This document shows, piece after piece, positions 17,538 to 47,993 of a stretch of 48,160 nt of DNA. The translations under genes were made by a program, and so were the position numbers. The notes under the pieces are model-generated. The model was not told the origin of the DNA. It worked only from the letters and a program-made list of their open reading frames with translations, and ran no database searches. Within the stretch, counting starts at the first letter, position 1. Each line of letters opens with the position of its first letter. The stretch lies in the UHGV virus genome UHGV-1333633, one strand, 5' to 3'. This DNA comes from a virus.

Positions 17538-17553
17538 TTGACGAGTACGTCAA
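17538..17553 (-). promoter_or_regulatory. operator/promoter palindrome TTGACGAGTACGTCAA. Minus-strand promoter TTGACG-17-TAGTAT for the SSB-like gene.
   Basis: Perfect 6-bp arms. The minus-strand -10 TAGTAT lies 17 bp downstream. A leader hairpin gggagacagagggtctccc and RBS agagagg follow. Confidence 0.55.
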
Positions 17554-17556
17554 CAA

Positions 17557-18681
17557 CTATTTTCGGGAAAATACATTTTTAATTACACGTTCATCAACCT
17601 GTTCCAGCTTGACACCCGTGACAGGTGTTTCAGCGTACTGCTCAATAACGGACGGGTCGATACCTTTTTTCACACACTGTGCAGGTGTGTCCAGTTCCTG
17701 CGGCTTACGAAGATTTTGCCCTAACAAATCCCCCATCATAATCACCTGGTCCACCGGAACATCTTTCTTCCAGCGCTTACGACCGTATGTGGTTTTAGCG
17801 GTGTAGAATGTCACATGTTGACCCTGCTTAATCTCATGCAGTGCTTGTTCCTCCAGACCACTGAGACGCATTTTAATCATCTCCTGTGCACGCTGCAGGA
17901 GTCGCAACTCAACACCCAGCGCGTGACCAGACAAGCTGTGCGTCTGCAGCGACATTGCGTAGTCCACACCAGCGTAACTCTGTTGCTTCAGTGTGTCACA
18001 GTGTGCACGTGCGCTACAGTCGAGGCAATGTGGTCCGGGCGCACACATTGGCGCGGTGTCCAGAACACGGGGCATCGTCTCGTTCACATGCTGCCGGTAC
18101 GCACACAGCCCATCGTATGTGAGCACCCATTTACGCACCGTACCCTCACTAGTGAATCCACGTGGCTGCACGATGACCAGTTCGATAATGTCCGGCGGCG
18201 ACTGGAATTGTTCACAGATGCTAAACGCTTCAATTAACAGTTGCCAGTTTTCAAACGGGTCAACAATGCGGTGACCGAATTTAGCGTCCCAGACGCGCAA
18301 CACCTTTCCTTCCGGTACATACACCCACGCATCGGGAATACAGTACCAGTCACCGTAACCCGGGACAGGACACACTTCTTCGACGTGAAGGTCGTGCACT
18401 CGTCCGTGAGTGTTACAATAACCCCACACCTCGTTAAAATACTCACGGGCAGCGTCAAACAGTTCATCTGTGATGACAATCCCATCCTTTGACAGACTGC
18501 CCACCAGTTCACTGAATGGCTCATTTTTGAATAACTTCTGAGCCACTTCGTGTGCGGCACGTCCCTCGAGACGTGACTGCGACGGTTCGACGTCCAGTGG
18601 CGGATAAGCCTGTTGCGCCCGGAATGACCCGTTACAGACCATCCATTGTCCGGCGTCAGATACTTTGGGTAAGTTACTCAT
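17557..18681 (-). CDS. PD-(D/E)xK nuclease, DUF2800/Cas4-like, with C-terminal Cys cluster
   Basis: N-terminus GQWMVCNGS matches the RW-x-CPGS signature of DUF2800. Cys cluster CLDCSARAHCDTL. Confidence 0.5.
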   Translation of the reverse strand: MSNLPKVSDAGQWMVCNGSFRAQQAYPPLDVEPSQSRLEGRAAHEVAQKLFKNEPFSELVGSLSKDGIVITDELFDAAREYFNEVWGYCNTHGRVHDLHVEEVCPVPGYGDWYCIPDAWVYVPEGKVLRVWDAKFGHRIVDPFENWQLLIEAFSICEQFQSPPDIIELVIVQPRGFTSEGTVRKWVLTYDGLCAYRQHVNETMPRVLDTAPMCAPGPHCLDCSARAHCDTLKQQSYAGVDYAMSLQTHSLSGHALGVELRLLQRAQEMIKMRLSGLEEQALHEIKQGQHVTFYTAKTTYGRKRWKKDVPVDQVIMMGDLLGQNLRKPQELDTPAQCVKKGIDPSVIEQYAETPVTGVKLEQVDERVIKNVFSRK

Positions 18682-18685
18682 CGTC

Positions 18686-19542
18686 TCACTCCCCCAAATG
18701 CGCTTTAACGCGTGCCACGAACGGACCGATTTTATCCGGGTGGGCGTTCAGTTCCTGTACCGATGACATGCCGTCCTGCGCCAGCAATGTGTTCACCGTT
18801 ACCACATCAATCTTACCGTGACGCTCGGTCAGGAAGGTCATGAGGCGCGGGAAGTCCCACTCGGTTACTTCCGGTACAGGTGGTGCAACAACTACCGGAG
18901 GCGGTACAGGGATTGGCGGAATACCCGCAACAGTTTGCTCAGTTACCACGCCTGCGTCAGTGTGGAAGTCATCGCCCGGTGGTGTTACAGGTGGTTCGAC
19001 TTCTTCACGTGTCGGTTCGCCAATTTCCAGGGGGTCCAGGGTTTTAACTTCTTCATCGGTCATTACTGGTGTTTGAGTATGCAACTCACCCTTAACTGAC
19101 TCAACAAATGCCGCCCATTCCAGTTCATCCATATCCTTCGGCTTACGACGCAGACGCCACGTACCGTCCGCATTGAGCGCCTTACTGGTGGAGTGGATAC
19201 GCTCGTCCCACGGTGTACCGGTTGAGTCGGTGGTGGAAGGTGCTTGCTCTTCATCGTCTCCCATTGGTGCAGCCAGTGACTCAACCTGTTGAGCAGTCGT
19301 ATCGACTTCCGGCTCACCCATCATTTGTGGCGCGGCTTGCATTAATTCACCAGTGGCACCATTGAGACGCTCCAGCGCGGCAGTCGCTTCGCTCGTGTCA
19401 ATGTTCAACTTATACGACAGTTCGCCGACAGTCTTACGTGGCTCAGCACCGTGCGCCAGTGCCATTTCTTCCAGTGCTTTACCAAACGCACGCAGCGCGA
19501 TGTGGTCGTCGTTTGGGATGGTTAAGGTGATATTGCTCATGT
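18686..19542 (-). CDS. hypothetical acidic/Pro-rich protein with GTPWDERIH motif
   Basis: Start MSNITLTIP follows RBS ggaggacagagagac. Low-complexity acidic and PPVVVAPPVP segments. Motif DSTGTPWDERIHSTS. Confidence 0.5.
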
Positions 19543-19587
19543 CTCTCTGTCCTCCATTGTTGTCGATGTGGTGAACTCTATACCACC

Positions 19588-19603
19588 ATGACGCACTCGT
19601 CAA
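19588..19603 (-). promoter_or_regulatory. palindrome ATGACGCACTCGTCAA. Minus promoter TTGACG-17-TAGAGT for the 18686..19542 gene.
   Basis: Hexamers read on the reverse complement. Confidence 0.5.
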
Positions 19604-19643
19604 CACTATTTTAAATTTGACACGGGGAGGGTGGTGATGCACA

Positions 19644-19910
19644 ATGACGGGAGCGTCAATAACAACGGAGAACGGAGAGATGATTAACGATAACTACAGG
19701 GCGAGAGCAACCCGTGCAGAACAAGAATCGGCGAAATTGCGTGAAGAATTAGCAAAACGACCCAATTATGAGTGGTTTGTTGAACTGGTTCGCAAACATT
19801 TGAAACAAGAGGAAGGTGTTTGTCCTCAACGTTTGGCACATCAAGTTAAACAACTGAAAGAGGCGAGTACCAAACGTAGACAAAATCGGGAGTGTGCAGA
19901 AGATGAGTAA
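19644..19910 (+). CDS. hypothetical protein
   Basis: 88-aa ORF with RBS gggagggtgg. Confidence 0.4.
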   Translation: MTGASITTENGEMINDNYRARATRAEQESAKLREELAKRPNYEWFVELVRKHLKQEEGVCPQRLAHQVKQLKEASTKRRQNRECAEDE

Positions 19911-20100
19911 AAATAATACTGCATATTGGAGTTTATCACTCGATGTCACCTGCCCGAAATGTGGTCATTATTTTGACTTACTATGTGACCCTGATTTTTG
20001 GGAGTTCTCTGGTGCGAAACAGGTTTGTGAACCAATTGAAGGTTATGAAACGTGCTGTCCAGAGTGTGACCACGAATTTAAAACTGACTTCGTGTATTGA
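19894..20100 (+). CDS. small zinc-ribbon protein
   Basis: CPKCGH...CCPECDH forms a C4 pair. Confidence 0.45.
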   Translation: MQKMSKNNTAYWSLSLDVTCPKCGHYFDLLCDPDFWEFSGAKQVCEPIEGYETCCPECDHEFKTDFVY

Positions 20101-20108
20101 GGTGCGAC

Positions 20109-20267
20109 ATGAAAATTAAACAACTGCTCCGGCCGTCTTACGGCTGGTACAAGTCGACCAGTCGTAAGGACAAATGGTTCCTCGACGACGTGCAGATACC
20201 GATGTATGTGGCACGTAAACTAATCAGAAAGGCAGGCTTTAAACCGAACCAACACGCTCAAATATGA
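20109..20267 (+). CDS. small ORF (52 aa), basic
   Basis: RBS gaggtg-cgac-ATG. Below the ORF-track length cutoff. Confidence 0.3.
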   Translation: MKIKQLLRPSYGWYKSTSRKDKWFLDDVQIPMYVARKLIRKAGFKPNQHAQI

Positions 20268-20281
20268 ATACCGGGGTCAGA

Positions 20282-20434
20282 TGTACGACATTCGTGAATT
20301 ATCAGAATTGTCAGGTATAAACTATTACACCCTGAAAGGCCGATTGACGCACTATGGGTGGACTGTTGAACGGGCAATTTCTGAACCGTCTTTCAAAGGT
20401 AAGAATCAGACATATAAAGGTGCGGTAGAATGTT
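20282..20434 (+). CDS. small HTH-like ORF (50 aa)
   Basis: DIRELSELSGINYYTLKGRL is helix-turn-helix-like. Overlaps the helicase start. Confidence 0.3.
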
Positions 20435-22103
20435 AATAATGCGACCATACCAGCGGGATGCAATTGATAATGTGTATGCAAACTGGGCTGTCGGTAAACG
20501 ATTCGTAGTGCTTGTCATGCCAACCGGAAGCGGGAAAGCGTCCGTACTATGTGAGATTGCTAGAATCGAAGCGGCGCGCGGTCAGCGCGTCTTGATTACT
20601 GCTCATCGTTCGGAATTAATATCACAGTTGAGTAATACGCTGGCGAGAAACGAACTTCGTCATAATATAATCGCAGCACATCCGACAATAAAATATTCAA
20701 TCAGACTACACATGGAAGACCACGGGCGAACGTATTATGACCCATCGGCGAAAATTACCGTGGCTTCTGTGCAGTCTGTTAAACAGTCTCATATTGATGA
20801 ACTCAAGGCTTATAAGAATAAACTAACAATTATAGGTGATGAGTTTCACCATTATACGCGCGACTCTAAAACGTGGGGTGGTGTTTTCACGCCTCTGGAT
20901 GAAGCTGGCGCGCAGGGTCTGGGACTTACAGCCACACCGTGCCGTGCCGATGGAAAAGGTTTGTCGCGTGAAACAGACGGGTACGGGGACGCACTCGTTA
21001 TCGGTCCGGGGATGCGTGACCTTATCGAAATGGGTTTTTTGGTTGATTACAAAATCTATTGTCCGCCATCTGACCTACATCTTGATAAAGTTAAAGTCAG
21101 CGCTACAACTGGCGATTACGCGGAAAAAGAACTCAAGGAGGAGATTGGTAAGTCTCATATCGTGGGGGACATTGTTCAACACTGGCTTAAATTTACCCCC
21201 GGTAAACGCGGTGTAACTTTCACCGTTGGTGTGGATATGGCGGAAGAAGTTGCCGATGCGTATCGCGCAAAAGGTGTACCTGCGGTAGCCGTATCGGGAC
21301 GCATGAAAGACAGTGAACGTATTCAGGCACTACGTGATATTGCCAGCGGAAAAGTTTTACAAATTGTAAACGACAGCGTTCTGACAGAGGGAACTGACGT
21401 AAGTTCACTCGAAGTGGTGTCATTTGCACGCCCTACACAAAGTTATGCGCTTTTTTGCCAGATGTTCGGACGAGGTACACGTACCAGTCCTGATACTGGA
21501 AAGACACATCTCACAGTTATCGACGCCGTGTCAAATGTCATGCGCCACGGTTTACCAGATGCACCGCGTGAGTGGAGTCTTGACCGTCGGGAGCGTCGCA
21601 CGGGTAAAAGTGAACCATCGACGGTGCGCGTGTGTACAGCTTGTGCAGCGGTGTACGAGCGGTTCCGTGACACATGCCCGGACTGCGGTGAGCCTGTACC
21701 AAAACCGGCAGACCGTTCCGGACCGATACAGGTAGACGGAGACCTGTACGAGCTCGACCAGGACGTACTTACACGGATGCGTAATGAGGTTGTGGGAGCA
21801 CGTGAGACACCTGAGGCGATGCGTGACAGACTGACTGCACAACACGTGCCACCCGCTGGGGTGATGGCTAATGTCAAGCGTCAAAGTGAGCGCCTGGAAG
21901 TGCTGGGACGACTGGATGGTCTGATGGCGACTATTGCCGGTTACTGGCGACACGACGGCATGAGCGACAAAGAAATATTTCGTAAATTTTTCCTGACTTA
22001 CCATATCGACTGGTTAAGTGCACAAGGCCTGAAAAAAGATGATGCACTAACACTTATGGAAAAAATACAAAATGACGTTGACGGACTCGTCAAAACGCAC
22101 TAA
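20430..22103 (+). CDS. SF2 DNA helicase (DEAD/DEAH box) with C-terminal zinc ribbon
   Basis: Motif I VMPTGSGKAS, motif II IGDEFHH, motif VI QMFGRGTR. C4 ribbon CTACAAV...CPDCG. Confidence 0.8.
   Translation: MLIMRPYQRDAIDNVYANWAVGKRFVVLVMPTGSGKASVLCEIARIEAARGQRVLITAHRSELISQLSNTLARNELRHNIIAAHPTIKYSIRLHMEDHGRTYYDPSAKITVASVQSVKQSHIDELKAYKNKLTIIGDEFHHYTRDSKTWGGVFTPLDEAGAQGLGLTATPCRADGKGLSRETDGYGDALVIGPGMRDLIEMGFLVDYKIYCPPSDLHLDKVKVSATTGDYAEKELKEEIGKSHIVGDIVQHWLKFTPGKRGVTFTVGVDMAEEVADAYRAKGVPAVAVSGRMKDSERIQALRDIASGKVLQIVNDSVLTEGTDVSSLEVVSFARPTQSYALFCQMFGRGTRTSPDTGKTHLTVIDAVSNVMRHGLPDAPREWSLDRRERRTGKSEPSTVRVCTACAAVYERFRDTCPDCGEPVPKPADRSGPIQVDGDLYELDQDVLTRMRNEVVGARETPEAMRDRLTAQHVPPAGVMANVKRQSERLEVLGRLDGLMATIAGYWRHDGMSDKEIFRKFFLTYHIDWLSAQGLKKDDALTLMEKIQNDVDGLVKTH
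22078..22093 (+). promoter_or_regulatory. palindrome TTGACGGACTCGTCAA. Plus promoter TTGACG-17-TAACAT for the VRR-NUC/TetR/primase block.
   Basis: Lies in the last codons of the helicase gene. RBS ggag lies before the 22138 ATG. Confidence 0.5.
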
Positions 22104-22137
22104 CATGTTCCCGATGTGAATGAATTAGGAGTGTATC

Positions 22138-22608
22138 ATGAACAACCTTCTCGAATGGCAACGTAAACACAGTATCACAGGGGAGGCATTGGCTGACCTT
22201 GTGACGATGGTGGGATTGGATGCCCCACGCTCAACCAAAGATACACCCGAAGCGCGCGTACAGGATGAGGCGCGGCTGCTGGCAAGTAAGATGGGCTGGC
22301 GACTTTTTCGCAATAATTGCGGTGCGTTAAAAGACGAAAATGGTCGAGTTGTACGTTACGGTCTGTGCAACGACTCTTCAACGATGAACAAGCGTATCAA
22401 GTCGAGCGACCTCATCGGTATCCGCCCCGTGGTTATCACGCCTGATATGGTCGGGTTAACCATTGGACAGTTTGTGGCGCGTGAGGTGAAGAAAGCTGGC
22501 TGGAAATACAGGGGTACGGAACATGAAGAGGCACAGCTTGCGTTTGGGACGCTCATTATCGGGCTGGGCGGTGATTTTAAATTCTGGAATGGTGAGGAGG
22601 AGTTGTGA
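22138..22608 (+). CDS. VRR-NUC domain nuclease
   Basis: DLIGIRP...EVKK PD-(D/E)xK core typical of VRR-NUC. 156 aa. Confidence 0.6.
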   Translation: MNNLLEWQRKHSITGEALADLVTMVGLDAPRSTKDTPEARVQDEARLLASKMGWRLFRNNCGALKDENGRVVRYGLCNDSSTMNKRIKSSDLIGIRPVVITPDMVGLTIGQFVAREVKKAGWKYRGTEHEEAQLAFGTLIIGLGGDFKFWNGEEEL

Positions 22609-22799
22609 TGACTGAGCAAGAACTCGAACGAAGATTGATTGCACTGGAAATAATGGAAGCGGTACTGCATATCCATGATTATTATTTTCCACGGCATGAG
22701 AAATGGTCGCCGGAATATCAATATGCAATCGAAGGTTTGCGAATAGCCAATAAATGTCAGGCTCTCATCGCACACGACCGGACACTATTGACCAGTTGA
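22605..22799 (+). CDS. hypothetical protein
   Basis: 64-aa ORF, ATGA-coupled to the VRR-NUC gene. Confidence 0.4.
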   Translation: MMTEQELERRLIALEIMEAVLHIHDYYFPRHEKWSPEYQYAIEGLRIANKCQALIAHDRTLLTS

Positions 22800-22811
22800 C
22801 CACACCGTCAA
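22796..22811 (+). promoter_or_regulatory. palindrome TTGACCACACCGTCAA. Plus promoter TTGACC-17-CATACT immediately upstream of the TetR-like gene.
   Basis: One mismatch to the family consensus. -10 at 22819..22824. Confidence 0.5.
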
Positions 22812-22853
22812 CCTGTGCCATACTGCAACAAATTACCTAATGGAACCGAAATT

Positions 22854-23132
22854 ATGAGCAAAGAACACATTCTGGAAGTAGCTTACACGATGGCACAGCG
22901 CGACGGCTTTGGTACTCTTACCCGCGATGGCGTGGCAGCCGAGGCTGGTGTGGCAATGGGCACCATCAACCATCACTGGGTCAGGATGGACGCACTTCGT
23001 GAGGCAGTGATGCAACGAGCAGTGGAAGAAGAAAACCTCGAACTGATTGGACAGGGTATTGCACTGGGTGACAACATCGCTAAGTCTGCACCACTGGAGC
23101 TACGTGCTCGCGCGTTGACCACCTTACTTTAA
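22854..23132 (+). CDS. TetR-family-like HTH transcriptional regulator (short, ~93 aa)
   Basis: ILEVAYTMAQRDGFGTLTRDGVAAEAGVAMGTINHHW fits the TetR_N HTH signature. Start taken at MSKEH, downstream of the promoter -10. Confidence 0.45.
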   Translation: MSKEHILEVAYTMAQRDGFGTLTRDGVAAEAGVAMGTINHHWVRMDALREAVMQRAVEEENLELIGQGIALGDNIAKSAPLELRARALTTLL

Positions 23133-23154
23133 TAACCAAAACGGAGAGACAGAG

Positions 23155-25512
23155 ATGACACATACGAATCCCCCTGTGCAGGGGGCTGATTCCCTGCACT
23201 TTATCGTCTGCAAAACAGTACCTTCACAGAAGAAACCAGGGCGCACGGAGAAGATGCCGTGTAATGCTGCTGGTGAAGTGGTCAGTCTGCACGTTGCGGA
23301 CCGCATGTCTCATGCTCAGGCGGTCGCGGCGGCTTCTGCACTGGGTGAGTCATATCGTCCCGCGGTCATTCTTACGGGTGATGGTCGTTTCTGCGTGGAT
23401 ATCGACGGTGCACTACAGGATGATAACACCTGGTCACCGCTCGCGCTGGAATTATGCACAACTTTTGCCGGTTGTTACGTGGAAGTGAGCAACAGCGGTA
23501 AAGGCTTGCACATTTTTGGTTACAGTCCGTCCATCCCTGAGCACAGCTGTAAAAATGTTCCACTGCACATCGAACTGTACACGTCCGACCGTTTCATCTG
23601 TCTGGGAAGTGGTGCACGGGGTGACATGATGTTTAACGCATCCGCACCGCTCAACGCCACGGTTGCCCGGTATTTCCCGCAGACCGAGCAAGTTGCAGCG
23701 GTGGAGTGGTCAACAACTCACGCCGAAGGTTCGTGTCCGATTGAGGACGACGCGAAACTCATCGAAAAAGCCTGTTCGAGTAAAGGTGGTGTCGCGGCTG
23801 TTTTCGGTGGTAAAGCAACATTTAAAGACCTGTGGACGCGTAACGTCGAGGTACTGAGTGATGCGTATCCGGATGAGGACCGCGAGTATGACGGGTCGAG
23901 CGCCGATGCCGCACTGGCCCAACATTTATCGTTCTGGACCGGTGGTAACTGTGAACGTATCGAACGCCTGATGCGTCTGTCTGCGCTGGCGCGTCCTAAA
24001 TGGGACAGTCACAAGTCGTACATGCGACGCACCATTCTGGGTGCTTGCGCACGTCAGACAACCTACTACAGCGTCGGCGCACCGATTGAACTGGTGACTC
24101 CCGCGCAGGTTGTCGAGACGGGTGCACCGGTTATCCGAAGCGGGTATCAATTCATTGGAGGCTCACAGCTTGTTGACCATTTCAAAGGCTGCGTGTATGT
24201 GGCAGACAGTCATCGCGTACTGACCCCAAATGGTCAAATGCTGAAATCGGAACAATTCGACGTTATGTATGGTGGTTACGCCTTCGCGTTAGACGACAGT
24301 AACGAAAAAACAACAAAGTCTGCCTTTGAAGCCTTCACACGGAGTCAGTGCATTATGTTCCCGAAGGTTGACCGCTCGACATTTCGTCCGGACTTGTCAC
24401 AGGGTGCCATCATTGAAGAAGATGGTTTGCGTCATGTCAACGTATACGTGCCGGTCACGGTGGCGAGCGTCCCGGGCGATGTGACACCTTTCCTCACTCA
24501 TCTGGCTAAACTTTTACCCGTCGAGCGCGACCGTGAGATTCTGTTGTCATACATGGCAGCGTGTGTGCAGTACAAGGGGACTAAATTTAAATGGGCACCA
24601 TTGCTCCAGGGTGTTGAGGGTAACGGTAAAACACTGTTCACACTGTGCGTAATGGAAGCGGTAGGTTCACGTTACAGCCACATGCCGCCAGCGCAGGAGA
24701 TTGGCGAGAAGTTCAACGCGTGGCTGTTCGATAAAATATTTATCGGCGTGGAAGATATTTACGTTCCGGAGCAGAAACTCGAACTGATTGAAACGCTCAA
24801 GCCGATGATTACCGGTGAGTACCTCGCTAAACGTGCGATGCAGCAGGACCAGGTAATGCACCGCCTGTGTGCTAACTTCATGTTTAACAGTAACCACAAG
24901 AACGCCGTGCGCAAGACGGCTAATGACCGCCGGTTCGCTATTTTCTACACCGCGCAGCAGGAGCATATCGACATCGTGCGCGACGGTATGGGTGGAGACT
25001 ACTTCCCCAACCTGTATGACTGGCTCAAACGTGGTGGTGGATTTGCAGCCGTGACGCATTATCTGGAGAACTACGCCATTCCCGCACAGTTTAACCCGGC
25101 GACACATTGTCAGCGTGCGCCAGAGACCAGCAGTACTCACGAGGCTGTGACAGCATCACTTGGCAGCGTCGAACAGGAAATCATGGAAGCAATTGACGAG
25201 GGTCGCCAGGGCTTTGCGGGTGGTTGGGTGAGCAGTAAGGCACTGGACAACCTGTTACGCCAGATGCGTGCCGACCGCGCTGTACCGGTGGGTAAACGTC
25301 GTGACATGATGCGTCAACTAGGTTACGACTGGCACCCGGCGCTCAAGGATGGACGCGTGAATAACGTGATAATGATTGACGGTGGTAAGCCACGGTTGTA
25401 CATCAAGATTGGACACATTCACGCTAACCTCACAAATGCAGCAGACGTGGCGCGCCATTACGCGGCGGCACAGGGTGATACGAGTACTATTGCCTTTGCG
25501 GAAACTAAATAA
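23155..25512 (+). CDS. primase-polymerase + SF3 helicase replication protein (P4 alpha / D5-like)
   Basis: Prim-pol motif VEVSNSGKGLHIFG. Walker A GVEGNGKT and Walker B FIGVEDI in the C-terminal half. 785 aa. Confidence 0.7.
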   Translation: MTHTNPPVQGADSLHFIVCKTVPSQKKPGRTEKMPCNAAGEVVSLHVADRMSHAQAVAAASALGESYRPAVILTGDGRFCVDIDGALQDDNTWSPLALELCTTFAGCYVEVSNSGKGLHIFGYSPSIPEHSCKNVPLHIELYTSDRFICLGSGARGDMMFNASAPLNATVARYFPQTEQVAAVEWSTTHAEGSCPIEDDAKLIEKACSSKGGVAAVFGGKATFKDLWTRNVEVLSDAYPDEDREYDGSSADAALAQHLSFWTGGNCERIERLMRLSALARPKWDSHKSYMRRTILGACARQTTYYSVGAPIELVTPAQVVETGAPVIRSGYQFIGGSQLVDHFKGCVYVADSHRVLTPNGQMLKSEQFDVMYGGYAFALDDSNEKTTKSAFEAFTRSQCIMFPKVDRSTFRPDLSQGAIIEEDGLRHVNVYVPVTVASVPGDVTPFLTHLAKLLPVERDREILLSYMAACVQYKGTKFKWAPLLQGVEGNGKTLFTLCVMEAVGSRYSHMPPAQEIGEKFNAWLFDKIFIGVEDIYVPEQKLELIETLKPMITGEYLAKRAMQQDQVMHRLCANFMFNSNHKNAVRKTANDRRFAIFYTAQQEHIDIVRDGMGGDYFPNLYDWLKRGGGFAAVTHYLENYAIPAQFNPATHCQRAPETSSTHEAVTASLGSVEQEIMEAIDEGRQGFAGGWVSSKALDNLLRQMRADRAVPVGKRRDMMRQLGYDWHPALKDGRVNNVIMIDGGKPRLYIKIGHIHANLTNAADVARHYAAAQGDTSTIAFAETK

Positions 25513-25532
25513 GCCCTTCGGGGCTTTTTTTT
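25511..25532 (+). terminator. intrinsic terminator agccc-ttcg-gggct + T8
   Basis: Read directly after the primase stop. Confidence 0.7.
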
Positions 25533-25542
25533 GCAATTAGTA

Positions 25543-25558
25543 TTGACGGACTCGTCAA
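25543..25558 (+). promoter_or_regulatory. palindrome TTGACGGACTCGTCAA. Plus promoter TTGACG-17-TATCTT.
   Basis: Identical to the 22078 site. Drives 25608 onward. Confidence 0.55.
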
Positions 25559-25607
25559 GGTGGGTTATCTTCAACTCATCGGAACAACAATTAAGGAGAC
25601 TAAACAA

Positions 25608-25781
25608 ATGAAAAATATCATCAGCCATCACAAACTGTCCGACATGATGGACAATATGACAGAGGTTCAGGCGCTGACCACACTGTCACGTATGCGTGCG
25701 CAGGCTGACCGGGACGGACTGTGTGTCACTCGTCTCATTGTTGAAGGTAAAGTACGGGAACAGTGGATATGGAAGCACTGA
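25608..25781 (+). CDS. hypothetical protein
   Basis: RBS aaggag. MKNIISHHKLSD... Confidence 0.4.
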   Translation: MKNIISHHKLSDMMDNMTEVQALTTLSRMRAQADRDGLCVTRLIVEGKVREQWIWKH

Positions 25782-25954
25782 GTTATTGCCAGCTGATGGA
25801 GCGCTGTTTAGCGGCTGAGGCGCGTGTTGCTGAGTTAGAGGAAACATTCAAATATCCGGTAGCTTACATCACCTATAAAGGCTATCTAATTCACGCTGGC
25901 GACCCAAAACTGAAAGAGTATAGCGACCCCACACCATTATATGAGGCACCTTAA
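25763..25954 (+). CDS. hypothetical protein
   Basis: 63-aa ORF overlapping its neighbours. Confidence 0.35.
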   Translation: MDMEALSYCQLMERCLAAEARVAELEETFKYPVAYITYKGYLIHAGDPKLKEYSDPTPLYEAP

Positions 25955-25956
25955 CC

Positions 25957-26253
25957 ATGATTAAATATTTACCACTTGTAGCGCTCCTGGCGGGCGCTCA
26001 GGTTAACGCAGCTGTTACTGCTGAGACAAATGAATCACGGGTTGCTAACCTGCTCTTTAACGGTTGCAGCGCTCAACGTGCACAGATGGGCGTGCAGGAA
26101 ATGATTAAACGGGCTAACCCGGGCGGTAATCCTGCAGCGACCGACCTTATCATCAAAGGTTACAAGTTCGGCATTGATTACCCGAATGTTGGTTGTAACC
26201 AGTTCTTTACGGTTGTTATCGACCAGTTAGTTAAAAGCCGGAGCAAAGTGTAA
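25957..26253 (+). CDS. small secreted protein (signal peptide, 2 Cys)
   Basis: MIKYLPLVALLAGAQVNAAV is a Sec signal with an AxA site. Confidence 0.5.
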   Translation: MIKYLPLVALLAGAQVNAAVTAETNESRVANLLFNGCSAQRAQMGVQEMIKRANPGGNPAATDLIIKGYKFGIDYPNVGCNQFFTVVIDQLVKSRSKV

Positions 26254-32765: not shown

Positions 32766-32781
32766 CTGACGAGGCCGTCAA
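32766..32781 (-). promoter_or_regulatory. palindrome CTGACGAGGCCGTCAA. Minus promoter TTGACG-17-TAGAGT.
   Basis: Read on the reverse complement. Lies 3 nt before the plus-strand ATG at 32784, so it is not a plus promoter. Confidence 0.5.
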
Positions 32782-33608: not shown

Positions 33609-33806
33609 CTAAGAAGTAACCTTATTGACAAGTCGGTCCATAGCGACCCATCGCTCAGATACTGAACCGTCCTCTTTGGTCGCGGTAAATGTCACGATAT
33701 CCTCGTGGAAGTTCATTTTAAAGTTTGTTACAGTGATGACACCGTCCACATCAATAATTCGGTCGTTGTTGCGGAGCATTACCGCTTTGACATATTTGTA
33801 GTTCAT
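33609..33806 (-). CDS. hypothetical protein (65 aa)
   Basis: ATGA-coupled to the upstream small ORF. Confidence 0.4.
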   Translation of the reverse strand: MNYKYVKAVMLRNNDRIIDVDGVITVTNFKMNFHEDIVTFTATKEDGSVSERWVAMDRLVNKVTS

Positions 33807-33955
33807 TTTCCATACGCCTCACGTAACACAGCGTTAGCAAGCGCCCAATCTTCATGTTTGCGTGCGAGCTGCTGTGCGGTCTGTAACAGTTCTTTATCGA
33901 CAACGAGTGCCTCTGATACGGGACGGTTGTAGCCGGGAAGTAGCGTGTTAATCAT
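33803..33955 (-). CDS. small ORF (50 aa) MINTLLPGYNRPVSEALVVDKELLQTAQQLARKHEDWALANAVLREAYGK
   Basis: Below the track cutoff. Preceded by RBS gaggg and the minus promoter at 34004..34019. Confidence 0.35.
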   Translation of the reverse strand: MINTLLPGYNRPVSEALVVDKELLQTAQQLARKHEDWALANAVLREAYGK

Positions 33956-34003
33956 CTCTCAAACCCTCTCTGTTGTTGTTGATGAACTGAGTATACGTCA
34001 TCC

Positions 34004-34019
34004 CTGACGAACTCGTCAA
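34004..34019 (-). promoter_or_regulatory. palindrome CTGACGAACTCGTCAA. Minus promoter TTGACG-18-TATACT.
   Basis: Read on the reverse complement. Confidence 0.5.
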
Positions 34020-34256: not shown

Positions 34257-34438
34257 TCACCCTCGTACAGTGGTTTCAGTTGATACCCGAACATGACAGC
34301 GTTGTTATGCGCCACACTACCCGCGCGGACCAGATATGTCGTACCGCGGTTGGTTGTCACTTCGTATGCGTATGGTTTTAAAATGGTGTCGATTTTATCC
34401 AATTCAGTTTCACATTGGGCGATGAAATCGTTACTCAT
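34253..34438 (-). CDS. hypothetical protein (61 aa)
   Basis: Coupled to the DUF3310-like gene. Confidence 0.4.
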   Translation of the reverse strand: MSNDFIAQCETELDKIDTILKPYAYEVTTNRGTTYLVRAGSVAHNNAVMFGYQLKPLYEGE

Positions 34439-34663
34439 TACTCGTTCTCCAGTTCATTAATCAGACGCTCCAGATACCAGCGAGCCTTTTTCACATCTTC
34501 CAGACCGTTCTTCTCTTCATAGCGCCACAGATATTTAACGACATTCGCCACACATACTGCCTCGATACCGGTTTTACCAACGGTGGCGGCCTTAATAGCG
34601 TCGATACATTCGATACTACCTTGTGTGTAGTGTGACGGATGGTTGACCATGTCGGTCATGTTG
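34438..34663 (-). CDS. DUF3310-family small phage protein
   Basis: NHPSHY...IECIDAI...KYLWRY signature. RBS taggag. Start MTDMVNHPSHY. Confidence 0.55.
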
Positions 34664-34718: not shown

Positions 34719-34734
34719 CTGACGGACTCGTCAA
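34719..34734 (-). promoter_or_regulatory. palindrome CTGACGGACTCGTCAA. Minus promoter TTGACG-17-CATAGT for the DUF3310 cluster.
   Basis: Read on the reverse complement. Confidence 0.5.
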
Positions 34735-39835: not shown

Positions 39836-39964
39836 ACCAATCCTCCCGGCGTAGTGACGACCGTAATACTTCATGATGACCTTGTCAGCACATAAATAAC
39901 CTTCATCCTCAACCACGATACCTCTGATAATGAAGAAGCTACGATAGTGTTTTGTTCTCATCAT
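39830..39964 (-). CDS. small ORF (44 aa), ATGA-coupled to the AP2 gene
   Basis: Below the track cutoff. MMRTKHYRSFFIIRG... Confidence 0.3.
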   Translation of the reverse strand: MMRTKHYRSFFIIRGIVVEDEGYLCADKVIMKYYGRHYAGRIGE

Positions 39965-40257
39965 GACCTCGAATATGGTTCGCGTTTTGGACCTTTCGGT
40001 ATCTCCTGCGGAGTGAATCCGCGCTCACGCCAGAAGTACCACAGTTTTCTTGCCAACAACGCGCGATGTGGAGTATTGAAACAACCGACCGTCAGCGTGA
40101 CATTCCTGTAGAAGACCACCGCCTCCCACTTGCCATACCTGTGATGAATCCCGGGAACTCGCGCGAGATGTAACTCACGCGACGCAATCCTGTCACACTT
40201 CTTACGCCATTGTTTCGTGGGGACATGACGCAGGATATCTTCAACAAGGCTTCCCAT
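39961..40257 (-). CDS. AP2-domain DNA-binding protein (HNH-endonuclease-associated type), stand-alone
   Basis: HHRYGKWEAVVFYRNVTLTVGCFNTPHRALLARKLW fits the AP2 beta-sheet/helix pattern. Confidence 0.5.
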   Translation of the reverse strand: MGSLVEDILRHVPTKQWRKKCDRIASRELHLARVPGIHHRYGKWEAVVFYRNVTLTVGCFNTPHRALLARKLWYFWRERGFTPQEIPKGPKREPYSRS

Positions 40258-40305: not shown

Positions 40306-40321
40306 TTGACGAATCCGTCAA
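40306..40321 (-). promoter_or_regulatory. palindrome TTGACGAATCCGTCAA. Minus promoter TTGACG-17-TACACT for the AP2 gene.
   Basis: Read on the reverse complement. RBS gagagagaggg. Confidence 0.5.
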
Positions 40322-42283: not shown

Positions 42284-42299
42284 TACGAGGACTCGTAAA
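42284..42299. promoter_or_regulatory. variant palindrome TTACGAGGACTCGTAA 2 nt before the sheath-like gene ATG
   Basis: Perfect 7-bp arms. Shares the GGACTCGT core with the family. Confidence 0.3.
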
Positions 42300-43864: not shown

Positions 43865-43890
43865 ATGAAAGGGGCCATCAGGCCCCTTTT
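43845..43890. repeat. direct repeat L (tube gene 3' end + terminator) flanking the homing-endonuclease gene. Partner at 45393..45435.
   Basis: caaagggtccagcaagctaaatgaaaggggccatcaggcccctttt versus caagggtccggcaagctaaacaaaaggggccatcgggcccctt. Confidence 0.8.
43866..43890 (+). terminator. terminator aggggcc-atca-ggcccct + TTTT after the tube gene. The stop codon of the minus-strand HEG lies in its loop.
   Basis: Read directly. Confidence 0.6.
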
Positions 43891-45326
43891 CTCCACATGT
43901 ATTTTTTAGTACCCGAATTTTCCGTAATCAAACACCCCGCCTCATCCATCATTTGACGTTGAGTCTTTTTCTTGGAAAATACCGACGGGTCAACCCCTAA
44001 CTTACTTAGCGTTTTTGGGATGTTAATCTTCCACCATTGTTGCCGACTCATGAAACCCACTTTCCGGTGCCATATTCTGAATGATGTGACCGAATCATCA
44101 ACCAGTTCGAATCCTGAGTTTTCATAACTTGACCCGTCGAAATAGTCACAATCTACGAACGATTGGCACCATTGCATATTTAGAGCCGCGGCCGCGTGTT
44201 TGAACAGCTTGGACTGACCACCTCTGACCATACAACTCGTGGCATAACGTACCATATCGAATCCACCCTCAGCAATTTGGTTAAATGTCATAACTGCGAC
44301 GATTTGACCGGATTTATGGGTGAGTGCGAAATTATGTGAGGCCCGAGCATAGCCCTGAACGTGATGTTCAATCAGGAACTTCCGGGCATCTTTGCCGGGG
44401 ATATTCACAATCTTACAGTCGCGAGCGTTGACTCTCACATCTTCGGAGTGCCCCGTGGCGTTTTTTATGATTCGCGTAATGATTGGTTTTTTATCTTTCC
44501 AGTCTTGTTCTGATATTGATATCAATCTATACCCAACACTGTTAGTTCTGATACGTTTGTTTTTGTGATATCCCCTCGGTCGTTTCTGCAGGCTGTGCCA
44601 GTATGTGCCATTGAATTCTATTGCCACTTTTGAAGCGTGGTCCACTATGTCGAGTTCTTGAGGTGCGATTAGTGAGCGATTCGAAATGTCAACATCACCG
44701 ATTAGCGACTGTATTTCCACTTCGAAACTTGATGGTCCCACGTTCGCGCATTTGGGGCAACCCACCCCGTAAGCATGCTGAAACGCAATCGGTGTGAAGT
44801 CTCCGTGTTTTTCGCATGTAACTACAATTTTGTCGCCAGATTTGGTGTATGATGTTTTGTCATAGGTATATGGACTACCACTGTCTTTCATTTTTTGGAC
44901 GAATGATTCCGTATCGTATTTCCCACCTTGTTTGCACTTGGGACAACCTTGCCCCGTGGTGCAGTGTGCAGATGGAGTCTGGTAGAAATCTCCATGAGTG
45001 GGACAGGTGATTCTCATCTTTGTACGGGTGTCAACATATGTTTCGGGGTGGTACTCATATTTATTTCCGTGTTTCTCTTTGGCGCGGTCGAGCATTTCAG
45101 AAACAGACTTCCGTTTGTTCGTATTTTTAATTTTTTTTGCACATTCTGGGCAGTTGCTGCCATTAGTGTGGTCTGCTGCAATCTGTAAGAAATCCCCGTG
45201 AATGCGGCATTTTATCCGAACTGTGTTCGCCTTACCCGTGTAAACTACCCCCGTGTAATCGTACCTGTCACCGTGTACAGATTTGGCCTTATTGACGTAT
45301 TCTTCGGTTGTCAACTTTTTGGACAT
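43878..45326 (-). CDS. free-standing homing-endonuclease-like protein: 3 Zn-ribbon repeats + Vsr-like/DUF559 PD-(D/E)xK nuclease domain + C-terminal domain
   Basis: Repeats with HGDF...GCPxC. ELDIVDHASKVAIEFNGTYWH matches the Vsr/DUF559 core. Start MSKK after RBS gagggaggag. Confidence 0.6.
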   Translation of the reverse strand: MSKKLTTEEYVNKAKSVHGDRYDYTGVVYTGKANTVRIKCRIHGDFLQIAADHTNGSNCPECAKKIKNTNKRKSVSEMLDRAKEKHGNKYEYHPETYVDTRTKMRITCPTHGDFYQTPSAHCTTGQGCPKCKQGGKYDTESFVQKMKDSGSPYTYDKTSYTKSGDKIVVTCEKHGDFTPIAFQHAYGVGCPKCANVGPSSFEVEIQSLIGDVDISNRSLIAPQELDIVDHASKVAIEFNGTYWHSLQKRPRGYHKNKRIRTNSVGYRLISISEQDWKDKKPIITRIIKNATGHSEDVRVNARDCKIVNIPGKDARKFLIEHHVQGYARASHNFALTHKSGQIVAVMTFNQIAEGGFDMVRYATSCMVRGGQSKLFKHAAAALNMQWCQSFVDCDYFDGSSYENSGFELVDDSVTSFRIWHRKVGFMSRQQWWKINIPKTLSKLGVDPSVFSKKKTQRQMMDEAGCLITENSGTKKYMWRKGA

Positions 45327-45392
45327 GTTCTCCTCCCTCTCATGATGACCAACGTGTTTCGATTGAATAATACACGTGCTACATAGCCAAAA

Positions 45393-45435
45393 CAAGGGTC
45401 CGGCAAGCTAAACAAAAGGGGCCATCGGGCCCCTT
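45393..45435. repeat. direct repeat R (copy of tube gene 3' end + terminator)
   Basis: See 43845..43890. Confidence 0.8.
45411..45435 (-). terminator. minus-strand terminator for Rha copy 1 (hairpin + ttttgttt)
   Basis: Read on the reverse complement. Confidence 0.55.
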
Positions 45436-45448
45436 GGTTATTTTTAAC

Positions 45449-46165
45449 TCAAATCAAACCTTCTTCAGATAATTTTCTGACAATCCACATTTCACCTTCG
45501 GCATAGAACATAGGTTGTGAGAACCCATTCTCTGTCTCCCGCATTATCCCGTACCCCTTATCGATGAACCATTGCTGAAATACACGTCCACGCTTCACGG
45601 AGCGATTGTAGACGTCCATTGAGGTTAACTGCTTGTTTAACCATATCGCTGATTGTCCGAACTTCTGGGCGATCTGAGTGGCGTTATAGAGACCATTGCG
45701 TTCTACAATCCGGTCGTAGACGTCTGCTTTTGGTGTCATCTCCTCATTCTCTAGTGCAAGACGTTCTTTCTCTTTCTCGCTTTCCAGCAGCGCTTCAAGT
45801 GCTTGAATATAGTTTTGTGGTAGTGCGGGTGTATTCACCCGTGATTCCAGCTCTTGCCAACGCTTGATTATCTTCATTCGTAATTGAGCGTTATACCCTG
45901 ACACCAGGCAGATGGTGTTATCTTTATCCAGCCGGTACTCCCATGCGTTTGGGTTGGTGGTATCATACTGAATGCACGTAACCCCATGATTCGTAACGTA
46001 ACTCAAATTTGAGTTACGAACATAATCTTCATCGTGACCACCATGTAGAGCGCAGAGCATTGAGCGAATGTCTCTGCAAACATTGTCGTGACGCTTCTCA
46101 ACTAGCGTCGCAATCTCGCGGCTAGACATGGTTAGTTCCGATTTTGTGTTTACTAAATCGTTCAT
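45449..46165 (-). CDS. Rha-family regulatory protein with KilAC (antirepressor C-terminal) domain, paralog 1 (intact)
   Basis: N-terminus TMSSREIATLVEKRHDNV (Phage_pRha). C-terminus YNATQIAQKFGQSAIWLNKQL... (KilAC). Confidence 0.75.
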   Translation of the reverse strand: MNDLVNTKSELTMSSREIATLVEKRHDNVCRDIRSMLCALHGGHDEDYVRNSNLSYVTNHGVTCIQYDTTNPNAWEYRLDKDNTICLVSGYNAQLRMKIIKRWQELESRVNTPALPQNYIQALEALLESEKEKERLALENEEMTPKADVYDRIVERNGLYNATQIAQKFGQSAIWLNKQLTSMDVYNRSVKRGRVFQQWFIDKGYGIMRETENGFSQPMFYAEGEMWIVRKLSEEGLI

Positions 46166-46172
46166 CTCTGTT

Positions 46173-46590: not shown

Positions 46591-46708
46591 ATTTCGTATC
46601 TCCTCTCTTGTTCGTGTGAGTGTAGTTTCGATGAAAATCACGACCCGTTCAAATCGATTTGTTTATGATCACGATTAACGATGTAATTGATGACAATTGA
46701 CCTCTTAG

Positions 46709-46963
46709 TTATTTTCTTTTACTCCGAATGTGGAAGTCCGCTTTGTCCATCATTTCTTTACGCCAGCAAATCCCGGTACCCATATACGCCGGGTCGTCAC
46801 TTTCCGCATAACCGTATTCATTTTCATGATACGTACAAATCGTATCGGTTTGCTCATCGTAAATCTGGAATTGCTCGCTCTGAGCACTGTGGGCACCACT
46901 GCAGTAAATTGCCGCAGCCACGATAACAACCAACTGAATTTTAAATTTGTTTAACATTTTCAC
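46709..46963 (-). CDS. small exported protein (signal peptide, 4 Cys)
   Basis: MKMLNKFKIQLVVIVAAAIYCSGAHSA signal. Its N-terminal leader is paralogous to the 47750..47932 protein (MLNK...IVAAV). Confidence 0.5.
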   Translation of the reverse strand: MKMLNKFKIQLVVIVAAAIYCSGAHSAQSEQFQIYDEQTDTICTYHENEYGYAESDDPAYMGTGICWRKEMMDKADFHIRSKRK

Positions 46964-46984
46964 ATCTCCCCTGTTATTTTTAAC

Positions 46985-47674
46985 TCAAATCAAACCTTCT
47001 TCAGATAATTTTCTGACAATCCACATTTCACCTTCGGCATAGAACATAGGTTGTGAGAACCCATTCTCTGTCTCCCGCATTATCCCGTACCCCTTATCGA
47101 TGAACCACTGTTGAAATACACGTCCGCGCTTCACGGAGCGATTGTAGACGTCCATCGAGGCTAGTTGTTTGTTTAGCCATATCGCTGATTGTCCGAACTT
47201 CTGTGCGATTTGAGTGGCGTTATAGAGACCATTGCGTTCTACGATTCGGTCGTAGACGTCTGCTTTTGGTGCTGCTATCGATAGTTTCTCCTGCGCCAAA
47301 AGCTTCTGTTCGTACTCGGTAGCCCATGCTCTCGCGGCTTCTGCTGGATTTGTGAAGTCTGGTAGTGTCGGTTTGTTGGCGTTCTCAAGTTCTTGCCAAC
47401 GGTTAATCAACTTCTGACGCAAGGGAATGTTATAGCCAGTCATTAACAGTAGTGTTTGATTCTTGGTTAGCAGATACTCGGATGTATACCCTCTATTATC
47501 TGTAAGTGACTGAAATTCCTCATGGTCCAAATTTGGACCATCTTTTAACTGCTCGATAATTGTGCGAATATCGCGAATAATGTGTTTATGTTCCTTCCCA
47601 GTCAATTCCGCAATCTCACGGCTGGACATCGTTTGTACATCGCCGACAGTCATTAAGCCATTCATATCTCGCAT
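46985..47674 (-). CDS. Rha-family / KilAC antirepressor-like protein, paralog 2 (intact)
   Basis: MSSREIAELTGKEHKHIIRDIR N-terminus. C-terminal 100 aa identical to paralog 1. Confidence 0.75.
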   Translation of the reverse strand: MRDMNGLMTVGDVQTMSSREIAELTGKEHKHIIRDIRTIIEQLKDGPNLDHEEFQSLTDNRGYTSEYLLTKNQTLLLMTGYNIPLRQKLINRWQELENANKPTLPDFTNPAEAARAWATEYEQKLLAQEKLSIAAPKADVYDRIVERNGLYNATQIAQKFGQSAIWLNKQLASMDVYNRSVKRGRVFQQWFIDKGYGIMRETENGFSQPMFYAEGEMWIVRKLSEEGLI

Positions 47675-47749
47675 CTCCTCTCTCTCGTTTGCGTGAGTGT
47701 GGTTTGTTTATGGTCACGATGATGACTGACTAGATTTTGAACTCACAAA

Positions 47750-47932
47750 TCATTTTGTCAGCATCCTTTTGAGTTTCATTGCGCACAGGTAGAAGAAGTA
47801 GAGACCTGGTAGAGCCAGAATCATCGGCACAATCTCCCCATTTTTCTCGTGTTCCAGACCCACTGCAATCATGGATGCGGCCACAGCTGCGACAATTAAG
47901 AAACATACCACTGTCATGATTTTGTTTAACAT
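47750..47932 (-). CDS. small membrane protein (2 TM), paralogous leader to 46709 protein
   Basis: MLNKIMTVVCFLIVAAVAASMIAVG...PMILALPGLYFFYLCAM. Confidence 0.45.
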   Translation of the reverse strand: MLNKIMTVVCFLIVAAVAASMIAVGLEHEKNGEIVPMILALPGLYFFYLCAMKLKRMLTK

Positions 47933-47977
47933 TTTCGTGTCCTCTCTGTTGTTTTGTTGATGTAACTGTAACTCGCA

Positions 47978-47993
47978 TTGACGACGCCGTCAA
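47978..47993 (-). promoter_or_regulatory. palindrome TTGACGACGCCGTCAA. Minus promoter TTGACG-17-TACAGT for the 47932 gene.
   Basis: Read on the reverse complement. RBS agagagg. Confidence 0.5.

Follow-up and report, generated by a model that had tools for sequence, protein, structure and literature searches.

The DNA considered here, UHGV virus genome UHGV-1333633 (48,160 nucleotides; this whole stretch is called the window below), represents, judging from its sequence, a Klebsiella myovirus (genus Jedunavirus) whose genome is complete or nearly so: positions 17000-26000 share 97% identity with Klebsiella phage KpV79, and this region matches 74 phage records, among them JD001, KpV52 and FZ14. 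Scattered over the window is a family of 16-bp palindromes of the form TTGACG-N4-CGTCAA (N4, four bases of free sequence), one arm of which doubles as the -35 element of a promoter at most sites, and directly downstream of one copy lies the gene for a protein of 92 amino acids (aa) with a TetR-type DNA-binding domain, here called mini-TetR. A preliminary description had listed eleven copies, from 5225 to 47978, all of which matched in our search; a twelfth, at 19644, had been missed. The depositors of the KpV79 record marked 'promoter' features at several palindrome sites and a 'TetR family transcriptional regulator', and neither that record nor the literature that we found mentions palindromic promoters there or a link to the TetR gene. 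Likewise, we found no prior description of palindromic promoters or of the TetR protein in the literature on Jedunavirus, CP-T1, MSW-3, PEi21 and AAM22, the sole related mention being that phages phiPLPE, CP-T1 and 138 have a tetR-like gene. The sites, the genes that they drive and the candidate regulator are as follows.

5225..5240, no strand assigned: imperfect copy TTGACG-TGAG-TGTCAA in the gap before the baseplate operon.
17538..17553, minus strand: TTGACG-TACT-CGTCAA, a -35 with -10 TAGTAT at 17530-17525, marked 'promoter' in KpV79; drives the single-stranded DNA (ssDNA)-binding/annealing gene 16667-17470 and then the DNA polymerase genes.
19588..19603, minus strand: TTGACG-AGTG-CGTCAT, a -35 with -10 TAGAGT at 19580-19575; drives 18686-19540 and the exonuclease gene 17557-18681.
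19644..19659, plus strand: ATGACG-GGAG-CGTCAA, not a -35; extends over the last bases of the -10 and over the start site of the promoter TTGACA-17-CACAAT (19617-19645, plus strand), which drives small genes and the helicase gene 20430-22103.
22078..22093, plus strand: TTGACG-GACT-CGTCAA, a -35 with -10 TAACAT at 22101-22106, within the 3' end of the helicase gene; drives 22138-22608.
22796..22811, plus strand: TTGACC-ACAC-CGTCAA, a -35 with -10 CATACT at 22819-22824; the start codon of mini-TetR lies 29 nt further on.
22854-23132, plus strand: the mini-TetR gene, encoding a TetR_N helix-turn-helix (HTH) plus about 40 residues, directly upstream of the primase gene 23155-25512.
25543..25558, plus strand: TTGACG-GACT-CGTCAA, a -35 with -10 TATCTT at 25566-25571, directly after the terminator 25511-25526; drives small genes from 25608.
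32766..32781, minus strand: TTGACG-GCCT-CGTCAG, a -35 with -10 TAGAGT at 32758-32753; drives an island from 32715 to the terminator 32208-32185.
34004..34019, minus strand: TTGACG-AGTT-CGTCAG, a -35 with an 18-bp spacer and -10 TATACT at 33995-33990; drives 33803-33955 and 33609-33806.
34719..34734, minus strand: TTGACG-AGTC-CGTCAG, a -35 with -10 CATAGT at 34711-34706; drives 34438-34659, which matches PHROG families named 'nucleotide kinase', and small genes downstream.
40306..40321, minus strand: TTGACG-GATT-CGTCAA, a -35 with -10 TACACT at 40298-40293; drives 39961-40257, followed by the terminator 39829-39814.
47978..47993, minus strand: TTGACG-GCGT-CGTCAA, a -35 with -10 TACAGT at 47970-47965; drives the 60-aa gene 47750-47932 and the Ant-like gene 46985-47674.

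The family is far larger than chance would allow. The exact palindrome TTGACGNNNNCGTCAA occurs five times in the window versus 0.01 expected, the 14-bp core TGACG-N4-CGTCA ten times versus 0.15 expected, and with up to one mismatch to TTGACG-N4-CGTCAA there are 12 sites versus 0.13 expected, a number that none of 100 shuffled sequences reached. At all sites except 5225 and 19644 (ten in total), the arm TTGACG (TTGACC at 22796) is followed after 17 bp (after 18 bp at 34004) by an xAxxxT hexamer, giving the elements of a sigma70-type promoter: a -35 near TTGACA (5/6 bases), a -10 with A at its second and T at its sixth position (3-4 of the 6 bases of TATAAT) and a spacing of 17 ± 1 bp. A Shine-Dalgarno sequence and an ATG follow 29-54 nt after the -10 in each of these ten cases. 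The earlier claim that one arm serves as a -35 before a TAnnnT -10 in every case thus holds for the ten sites, with the -10 hexamers that it listed, and fails at 5225, where only the minus strand offers a match, TTGACA-17-AATTAT. As CGTCA has a background frequency of 0.0016 per position, its presence at +10 in 10/10 promoters cannot be due to chance. Mismatches are confined almost wholly to the outermost base of the downstream arm (CGTCAG or CGTCAT), and the spacer between the arms has a fixed length and a sequence that is free between relatives, though nACT/AGTn is common inside this genome. Apart from TTGAC, CGTCA and the A and T in the -10, nothing is common to the ten promoters (mean column identity 42%), and such likeness restricted to functional bases argues that the family is held together by function and not by recent duplication. 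The arms lie 10 bp apart from centre to centre, and the palindrome spans -35 to -20 at the ten promoters and about -8 to +8 at the promoter starting at 19617, such that a dyad with half-sites about one helical turn apart overlaps core promoter elements, as in a repressor operator.

We then compared orthologous promoter regions at seven of the sites in 29 IMG/VR Jedunavirus contigs together with KpV79, Kpn112 and cmc20193. Arm positions 0-5 and 10-13 were 0% variable at 7/7 sites, and position 14 differed in a single sequence, at 17538, where the arms were otherwise unchanged in 24 unique orthologues; the downstream arm CGTCA was thus changed in 1 of about 120 orthologous sequences. The outermost base of that arm varied in 9% of the sequences. 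By contrast, mean variation among the sequences was 19-29% for N4, with as much as 62% at a single position, and 10-25% for the flanks; at 25543, for example, at least nine N4 sequences occurred in 27 unique orthologues while the arms were invariant. These alignments bear out the proposal that the arms are conserved and the spacer fixed in length only. They also support the conclusion that purifying selection not accounted for by sigma70 acts on the downstream arm, with which RNA polymerase can dispense, as the preliminary description had supposed. Site 19644 makes the same point independently: its arms were invariant in 23 unique orthologues whereas N4, the -10 region and promoter spacer, and the downstream genes varied (at least nine unrelated 300-nt sequences lie 3' of this operator among 35 sites), and since this copy is not a -35, the palindrome must be constrained independently of a -35 role. 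Its position over the transcription start is the repressing position of a classical operator, and we regard it as a stand-alone candidate operator.

The preliminary description had assumed that a single dimeric regulator reads the palindromes, and a plausible one is indeed encoded in the window. Mini-TetR matches the Pfam family TetR_N (PF00440) over profile positions 1-47/47 (E 9.3e-8, 32.2 bits versus a cut-off of 24), and its sequence matches in the PDB are all TetR-family proteins of 170-311 aa that align through their N-terminus only. An AlphaFold 2 (AF2) model (pLDDT 97.4) has seven short helices, and the top 50 listed Foldseek matches (E 6e-3 to 4e-2; none at or below 1e-3) are nearly all named TetR-family, several of them solved with DNA. 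The protein lacks the C-terminal ligand-binding/dimerisation domain (about 120-150 aa, helices 4-9/10) that marks the TetR family, and in this it is not alone: a family search returned 161 clusters (50% identity) at E<=1e-10, aligned over all 92 residues, and nearly all members are either 90-115 aa long or about 165 aa long with two matched stretches. Roughly one third of the best clusters are such tandem two-HTH proteins (Acinetobacter phage Scuro gp24, encoded at L009 21424-21924, P0131 and others), in which an N-terminal four-helix HTH module precedes a full mini-TetR module (one AF2 model, pLDDT 94.6, pTM 0.77). The tandem form, which on this model could be a single-chain pseudo-dimer, fits two HTH modules per palindrome. 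The genomic setting of the gene is conserved as well, in that it lies just upstream of a DUF5906/NrS1-1-type primase gene within a helicase-TetR-primase module that faces the exonuclease, ssDNA-binding protein and polymerase genes. Site 22796 is a candidate autoregulatory operator of the mini-TetR gene.

A motif search beyond this genome recovered the same palindromic promoters in Pantoea, Edwardsiella, Vibrio, Acinetobacter and metagenomic phages, all of which encode a TetR_N-only protein (roughly 90-115 aa, or the tandem form in Scuro) close upstream of their primase gene. When inverted repeats were counted de novo in each related genome, the palindrome ranked first in the following genomes carrying mini-TetR.

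Klebsiella phages cmc20193 and KpV79: TGACG-N4-CGTCA, 10-11 copies.
Pantoea phage AAM22 (TetR 53% identical): TGACG-N4-CGTCA, 10 copies.
Edwardsiella phage MSW-3 (TetR about 30% identical): TTGAC-N6-GTCAA, 5 exact copies.
Vibrio phage CP-T1 (TetR about 37% identical): TTGAC-N6-GTCAA, 6 exact copies.
Metagenomic loci L042/43 (64% G+C): TGACG-N4-CGTCA, 3-4 copies.
Metagenomic loci L047/48 (57% G+C): TGACG-N4-CGTCA, 4 copies.

In each related genome most copies lie 17-18 bp from a -10. Metagenomic locus L046 has one copy, TTGACG-AATC-CGTCAA, 16 bp from TATAAT, and as a single copy it does not rank first. The metagenomic phages that combine palindromic -35 promoters with mini-TetR range from 50 to 64% G+C. 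In Scuro, 5/5 sites read TTGACA-N4-TGTCA(T/G), the inner G:C pair having become A:T on both arms, and these sites are found only in the replication module, which holds the TetR gene; the structural module of this phage is of another type and has none. A palindromic promoter lies directly upstream of the TetR gene in the window, cmc20193, AAM22, MSW-3, Scuro, CP-T1, L042 and L047 (at least six lineages), and the deviation TTGACC in place of TTGACG recurs at this promoter in the window, cmc20193, AAM22, L047 and CP-T1. A conserved, presumably weaker operator at the TetR gene itself is what would be expected of an autoregulated repressor. Together, these comparisons support conservation of a putative circuit of palindromes and mini-TetR across at least five phage lineages. 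Two further phages proved of little use as controls. Sinorhizobium phage HMSP1-Susan has no TTGAC-N6-GTCA sites, and because it carries a divergent mini-TetR (E 2.6e-7) it is not a clean TetR-less control; Vibrio phage 367.14, retrieved through a weak TetR match, is an unrelated phage of 58% G+C without the motif and is uninformative.

The recognition helix and the operator appear to vary together in part: phages with a strict G as the inner base have GTINHHW/F, Scuro has GTVLRYY, and those with a relaxed inner base have GTVSFAF or GIVSYYY. This correlation is only suggestive, given the small sample and the high-GC phages that use the Klebsiella-type core with other helices. As a separate observation, the deviant half-site reads TTGACCA in the window (22796-22802), AAM22 (L005 40278) and L047 (9939), and TTGACC in CP-T1 (L007 12299); TTGACCA is identical to the consensus half-site of the Escherichia coli regulator RutR (TTGACCAnnTGGTCAA; PMC2475637). 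Cross-talk of the TetR-gene promoter with host RutR is conceivable on this basis.

On the basis of these data, we hypothesize, with a probability of roughly 0.6, that the palindromes are combined promoter and operator sites of an early regulon that is repressed by a mini-TetR dimer and that includes the mini-TetR gene; that they are protein-binding operators of some kind is a proposition that we hold with considerably greater confidence. In the proposed scheme the upstream arm TTGAC(G) would act as a sigma70 -35, and unaided host polymerase would fire all palindromic promoters upon DNA entry. These promoters cannot require mini-TetR because its own gene depends on one of them, and with a 5/6 -35 and optimal spacing they should not need help. 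Transcription of the mini-TetR gene from such a promoter would let the protein accumulate during early infection. The whole 14-16-bp palindrome would then serve as the site for a mini-TetR dimer contacting half-sites 10 bp apart on one face of the DNA, and the bound protein would exclude RNA polymerase, at about ten early promoters by lying over -35 to -20 and at one more (19644) by lying over the start site. All early units would be turned down together, with negative autoregulation, the regulator's own unit last. As there is no ligand-binding domain, occupancy would be set by concentration alone, in a timer-like manner. Finally, silencing of the five minus-strand islands within the structural block would prevent head-on transcription against the late operons. 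As had been suggested before, the sites drive the replication units, and with them four opposite-strand islands. The ssDNA-binding/polymerase, exonuclease and TetR/primase units all have palindromic promoters; of the three rightward units, that of 22078 holds an endonuclease-like gene, that of 22796 the TetR and primase genes, and that of 25543 a series of small genes.

Several points weigh against this hypothesis. First, the 92-aa protein is without the helices by which canonical TetR proteins dimerise, and the dimer is putative. Second, the same palindrome goes with differing recognition helices in different lineages (GTINHHW, ASGSVNRAY and ALALVNYYY). Third, the metagenomic locus L040/41 carries a mini-TetR gene and has no such palindromes in 9 kb. 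Fourth, some operators lie in the path of plus-strand late transcription, where a tight repressor could block late genes: the palindrome at 32766 stops 2 nt short of the head-morphogenesis ATG (32784), and that at 34719 stops 1 nt short of the protease ATG (34736), both genes being on the plus strand. Fifth, we found no binding, transcription start site or expression-timing data for any member of this phage group in the literature, nor any RNA-seq data for Jedunavirus. The sixth point, that a conserved host protein might be the binder, is taken up below.

The alternative that survives best, though we consider it unlikely, is that mini-TetR is an immunity-type repressor and not a lytic timer, silencing the early regulon during lysogeny, pseudolysogeny or a carrier state in the manner of C1 in phage P1. 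Phage CP-T1 originated from an induced lysogen, HMSP1-Susan has the same replication module along with its divergent mini-TetR and an annotated integrase and att site, the window carries Ant-like 'anti-repressor' paralogues, and a weaker conserved half-site at the TetR promoter would keep the repressor made while other promoters are shut. On the other hand, neither KpV79 nor the window has an annotated gene for an integrase, for partition or for plasmid maintenance, titles of papers on Jedunaviruses treat them as lytic therapy phages, and the repressor gene lies within an early operon, oriented as its targets and without a separate maintenance promoter.

Hardly less probable is an operator for a host protein that is conserved across Gammaproteobacteria (e.g. 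a TetR-, GntR- or CRP-family dimer), with the targets of mini-TetR elsewhere. Such a protein would account for the same core in Klebsiella, Pantoea, Edwardsiella and Vibrio phages despite their differing TetR recognition helices, and the RutR-like half-site at the TetR promoter points the same way. However, the motif tracks the mini-TetR replication module into Acinetobacter hosts and into phages of 57-64% G+C, and in Scuro it is limited to the mini-TetR module. The global regulators FNR and CRP have the general consensus sequences TTGAT-N4-ATCAA and TGTGA-N6-TCACA, respectively, and by these the half-site spacing fits neither, so sites of either type were ruled out. To our knowledge, no host regulator has a TGACG-N4-CGTCA consensus.

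Improbable to a greater degree is a family without any regulator, its symmetry a by-product either of two -35 hexamers placed back to back to serve divergent transcription or of a hairpin in DNA or RNA. Each arm is indeed -35-like on its own strand, the palindrome is able to form a hairpin of 4-5 bp, and at 5225 and in the divergent region of CP-T1 one palindrome may serve both directions. Yet none of the ten main sites has a -10 in register in the opposite orientation, which led us to reject the bidirectional-promoter reading for them, and the invariance of 19644 away from any -35 speaks against both versions. A hairpin or terminator was likewise rejected: the stability of the stems is low (-3 to -5.5 kcal/mol), MSW-3 and CP-T1 often have an inner pair that is not complementary, and the palindrome, which precedes the transcription start of its promoter, forms no part of the RNA made from it. 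Least probable of all is that mini-TetR binds the palindromes to activate or remodel transcription, as T4 MotA does at middle promoters or as LuxR/HapR-type TetR activators do, for while some TetR-family proteins are activators, according to the title of PMC6873888, and the -10s match TATAAT poorly, the promoters whose -35 to -20 region the site covers possess a 5/6 -35 and an optimal 17-bp spacer to begin with, the mini-TetR gene itself needs such a promoter to fire before any protein can be made, and 19644 sits at a repressing position.

Repression of an early regulon by mini-TetR would combine two known kinds of control, that by phage repressors acting at multiple operators and that by TetR-family proteins acting at a palindromic one. 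P1 C1 acts through operators dispersed over the genome and mycobacteriophage L5 gp71 through 'stoperators'. As proposed for mini-TetR, in both cases one small phage DNA-binding protein serves at least ten sites genome-wide and many units including its own gene; unlike the palindromes, their sites lack symmetry and are used for lysogenic immunity, neither protein resembles TetR, and the L5 stoperators act on elongation and do not form a -35, whereas the phage of the window appears strictly lytic and its sites are palindromic -35 elements. In lytic growth, lambda Cro and the phi29 proteins p4/p6 are early products that feed back on early promoters. These too would end the early phase via early promoters as mini-TetR may do, but they have other folds, work through two or three operator regions versus about twelve and do not reuse the -35 hexamer as a half-site.

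The nearest operator precedent is the RutR box. RutR is a TetR-family protein that binds the 16-bp palindrome TTGACCAnnTGGTCAA (PMC2475637), and it shares with the phage system the TetR_N HTH, a 16-bp palindrome with the same outer arms (TTGAC...GTCAA) and a site upstream of the regulator's own gene. It differs in being a full-length, ligand-responsive host protein (RutR and the solved TetR-family matches have about 170-220 aa, versus 92 aa without a ligand-binding/dimerisation domain in the phage protein) and in its inner bases, CA-nn-TG versus G-N4-C in the phage. Moreover, the half-site in the phage doubles as the -35 of about ten promoters, and for the phage protein we infer binding from sequence. 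Two other candidates for comparison were set aside: the operator of Ms6564, ACGAGACG-N3-CGTCTCGT, differs from the palindrome, and a paper on D29 Gp36 concerns a MerR-like protein and is hence not relevant.

The promoters also recall the promoter/stem-loop cassettes (PeSL) of T4-type phages, which are mobile (PMC2839356, PMC4122927). Here as there, short conserved early sigma70 promoter motifs border small, highly variable open reading frames (ORFs), and the gene content 3' of a conserved promoter differs between close relatives, as seen at 19644. Site 25543 lies directly after a terminator stem-loop, and one mobile HNH gene brings its own copy. By contrast, a PeSL consists of a promoter and a stem-loop with homology of recombination length and has no proposed operator function, whereas the sites of the window are alike only in functional bases and 25543 alone among its promoters has an adjacent stem-loop.

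This comparison bears on the suggestion that a promoter-plus-operator cassette travels with 'morons', that is, opposite-strand genes inserted into the late block, each of which was said to be driven by a palindromic site. Five minus-strand units inside the plus-strand structural block do have such promoters (32766, 34004, 34719, 40306 and 47978), and minus-strand terminators lie at 32208-32185, 39829-39814 and 45435-45416, so the units resemble morons in having a promoter and a terminator of their own. However, the HNH endonuclease gene 43878-45395 and the minus-strand unit starting at 620-648 have non-palindromic promoters (TTGGCT... and TTGAAT..., respectively). Nor is the presence of the islands sporadic and recent, although their gene content does vary: opposite-strand islands occur at comparable places, after the portal, head-morphogenesis, capsid/adaptor and tail-tube genes, in AAM22, CP-T1 and MSW-3, and this positional conservation from Klebsiella to Vibrio phages argues for an ancestral layout and not for recent morons. 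As to the travelling cassette, the promoters share functional bases only, and one clear case favours it. In KpV79 (L002 42423-43124) and cmc20193 (L003 42357) an HNH endonuclease gene that the window lacks is inserted between the TetR and primase genes, and the insert contains an internal palindromic promoter (TTGACG-TATC-CGTCAT, 18 bp, TAGAAT; at 42995 in KpV79) facing the primase gene. By its sequence this mobile HNH gene brings its own promoter/operator copy; the case for a cassette that travels with morons in general is weak. The late plus-strand promoters annotated in KpV79 have weak -35 elements (TTGAAT, TTGTTT) and no palindrome, except for the baseplate promoter, which has 5225 in its spacer.

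At 5225 the palindrome lies, on the plus strand, within the spacer of this baseplate promoter (TTGTTT-17-TATACT). On the minus strand its promoter faces an ORF-free stretch of about 215 nt that ends at a strong terminator, GCCCCGGTCCCCGGGGC-T7 (5011-4995). The imperfection (T at position 11) is also present in cmc20193 and in Pantoea phage AAM22. A palindromic minus-strand promoter lies in the non-coding gap ahead of the baseplate operon in AAM22 (L005 24859), CP-T1 (L007 38145) and MSW-3 (L010 22620) as well, with a terminator about 60 nt downstream in MSW-3. The downstream stretch (within 4990-5285 of the window) has a fold z-score of -2.3 and no Rfam match; a search of the whole window against Rfam likewise gave 0 family matches. 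The stretch is a candidate for an early small RNA, or for a promoter-terminator insulator overlapping the plus-strand baseplate promoter.

A variant copy had also been proposed at 42284 (TACGAGGACTCGTAAA), and this we could not uphold, since it gives no match at up to 2 mismatches and has no -10 in register. The segment 42284-42303, TACGAGGACTCGTAAAcATG, just before the tail-sheath start codon, equals 14/17 bases of the 34719 region GACGGACTCGTCAAcATG before the protease start codon, and it may be a decayed operator or a translation-initiation context shared by late genes. Early leaders have common features of their own: those at 19541-19574, 25572-25607, 33956-33989 and 47933-47964 share an A/C-rich CATC(A/G)ACAACAAC...AGAGAGG before the ATG, and similar CATCGACACAAC leaders occur 3' of palindromic promoters in MSW-3 (L010), such that they may be a shared unstructured translation-initiation leader. 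The leader of the promoter at 17538 contains a hairpin (17496-17514, minus strand; GGGAGAC-agagg-GTCTCCC) with compensatory changes in relatives (GGGACAC...GTGTCCC in L028 and L038, GGGGCAC...CTGCCCC in L039), and this is probably a conserved leader structure of the mRNA for the ssDNA-binding protein.

Two further features of the genome were observed. The DNA polymerase gene (minus strand, 13518-16448) is apparently split, with ORFs 14925-16448 and 13518-14102 interrupted by an endonuclease ORF (14092-15027); the polymerase of KpV79 is annotated as split likewise (gp53-gp55). The Ant-like ('anti-repressor', phrog_63) paralogues number three in the window and two in KpV79, the copies of the window being 45449-46165, 46985-47674 and a third cut by the window ends (about 48067-48160 plus 1-590), so that the window seems to start and end inside one Ant-like gene. 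A 25-nt segment, TCCGTGAAGC(G/A)CGGACGTGTATTTC, is repeated at 45601, 47137 and 48149, about 550 nt below the annotated start of both complete copies.

Beyond the window, we consider it possible, at somewhat less than even odds, that ligand-less mini-TetR proteins, with about 90-115 aa or, in tandem forms, about 165 aa, are a family not recognised before that has evolved to read the -35 hexamer itself as its half-site, an inverted -35 pair thus being at once a strong early promoter in either orientation and a repressor site. Such a portable, self-timing early switch would have spread with the primase/helicase/exonuclease module through Klebsiella, Pantoea, Edwardsiella, Vibrio and Acinetobacter myoviruses and uncultured high-GC phages, and would also clear antisense early transcription from late operons. 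The putative circuit of palindromic promoters and mini-TetR is shared by a wide phage group and has apparently not yet been described; its unusual features are the ligand-less mini-TetR, the use of half-sites as -35 boxes and the conservation with a replication module across many hosts. If the hypothesis is true, it would explain in simple, testable terms how the Jedunavirus group, which includes widely used Klebsiella therapy phages, and its relatives switch from early to late expression, with every early unit under one 92-aa protein and one 14-bp core. It would establish a compact TetR subfamily that works without an effector domain, offer a genome-wide early-promoter signature for annotating dozens of phage genomes, and supply synthetic biology with a very small repressor/operator pair in which the operator itself is a strong -35. 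The opposite-strand 'morons' of the late region would be recast as conserved early-gene islands of the same regulon.

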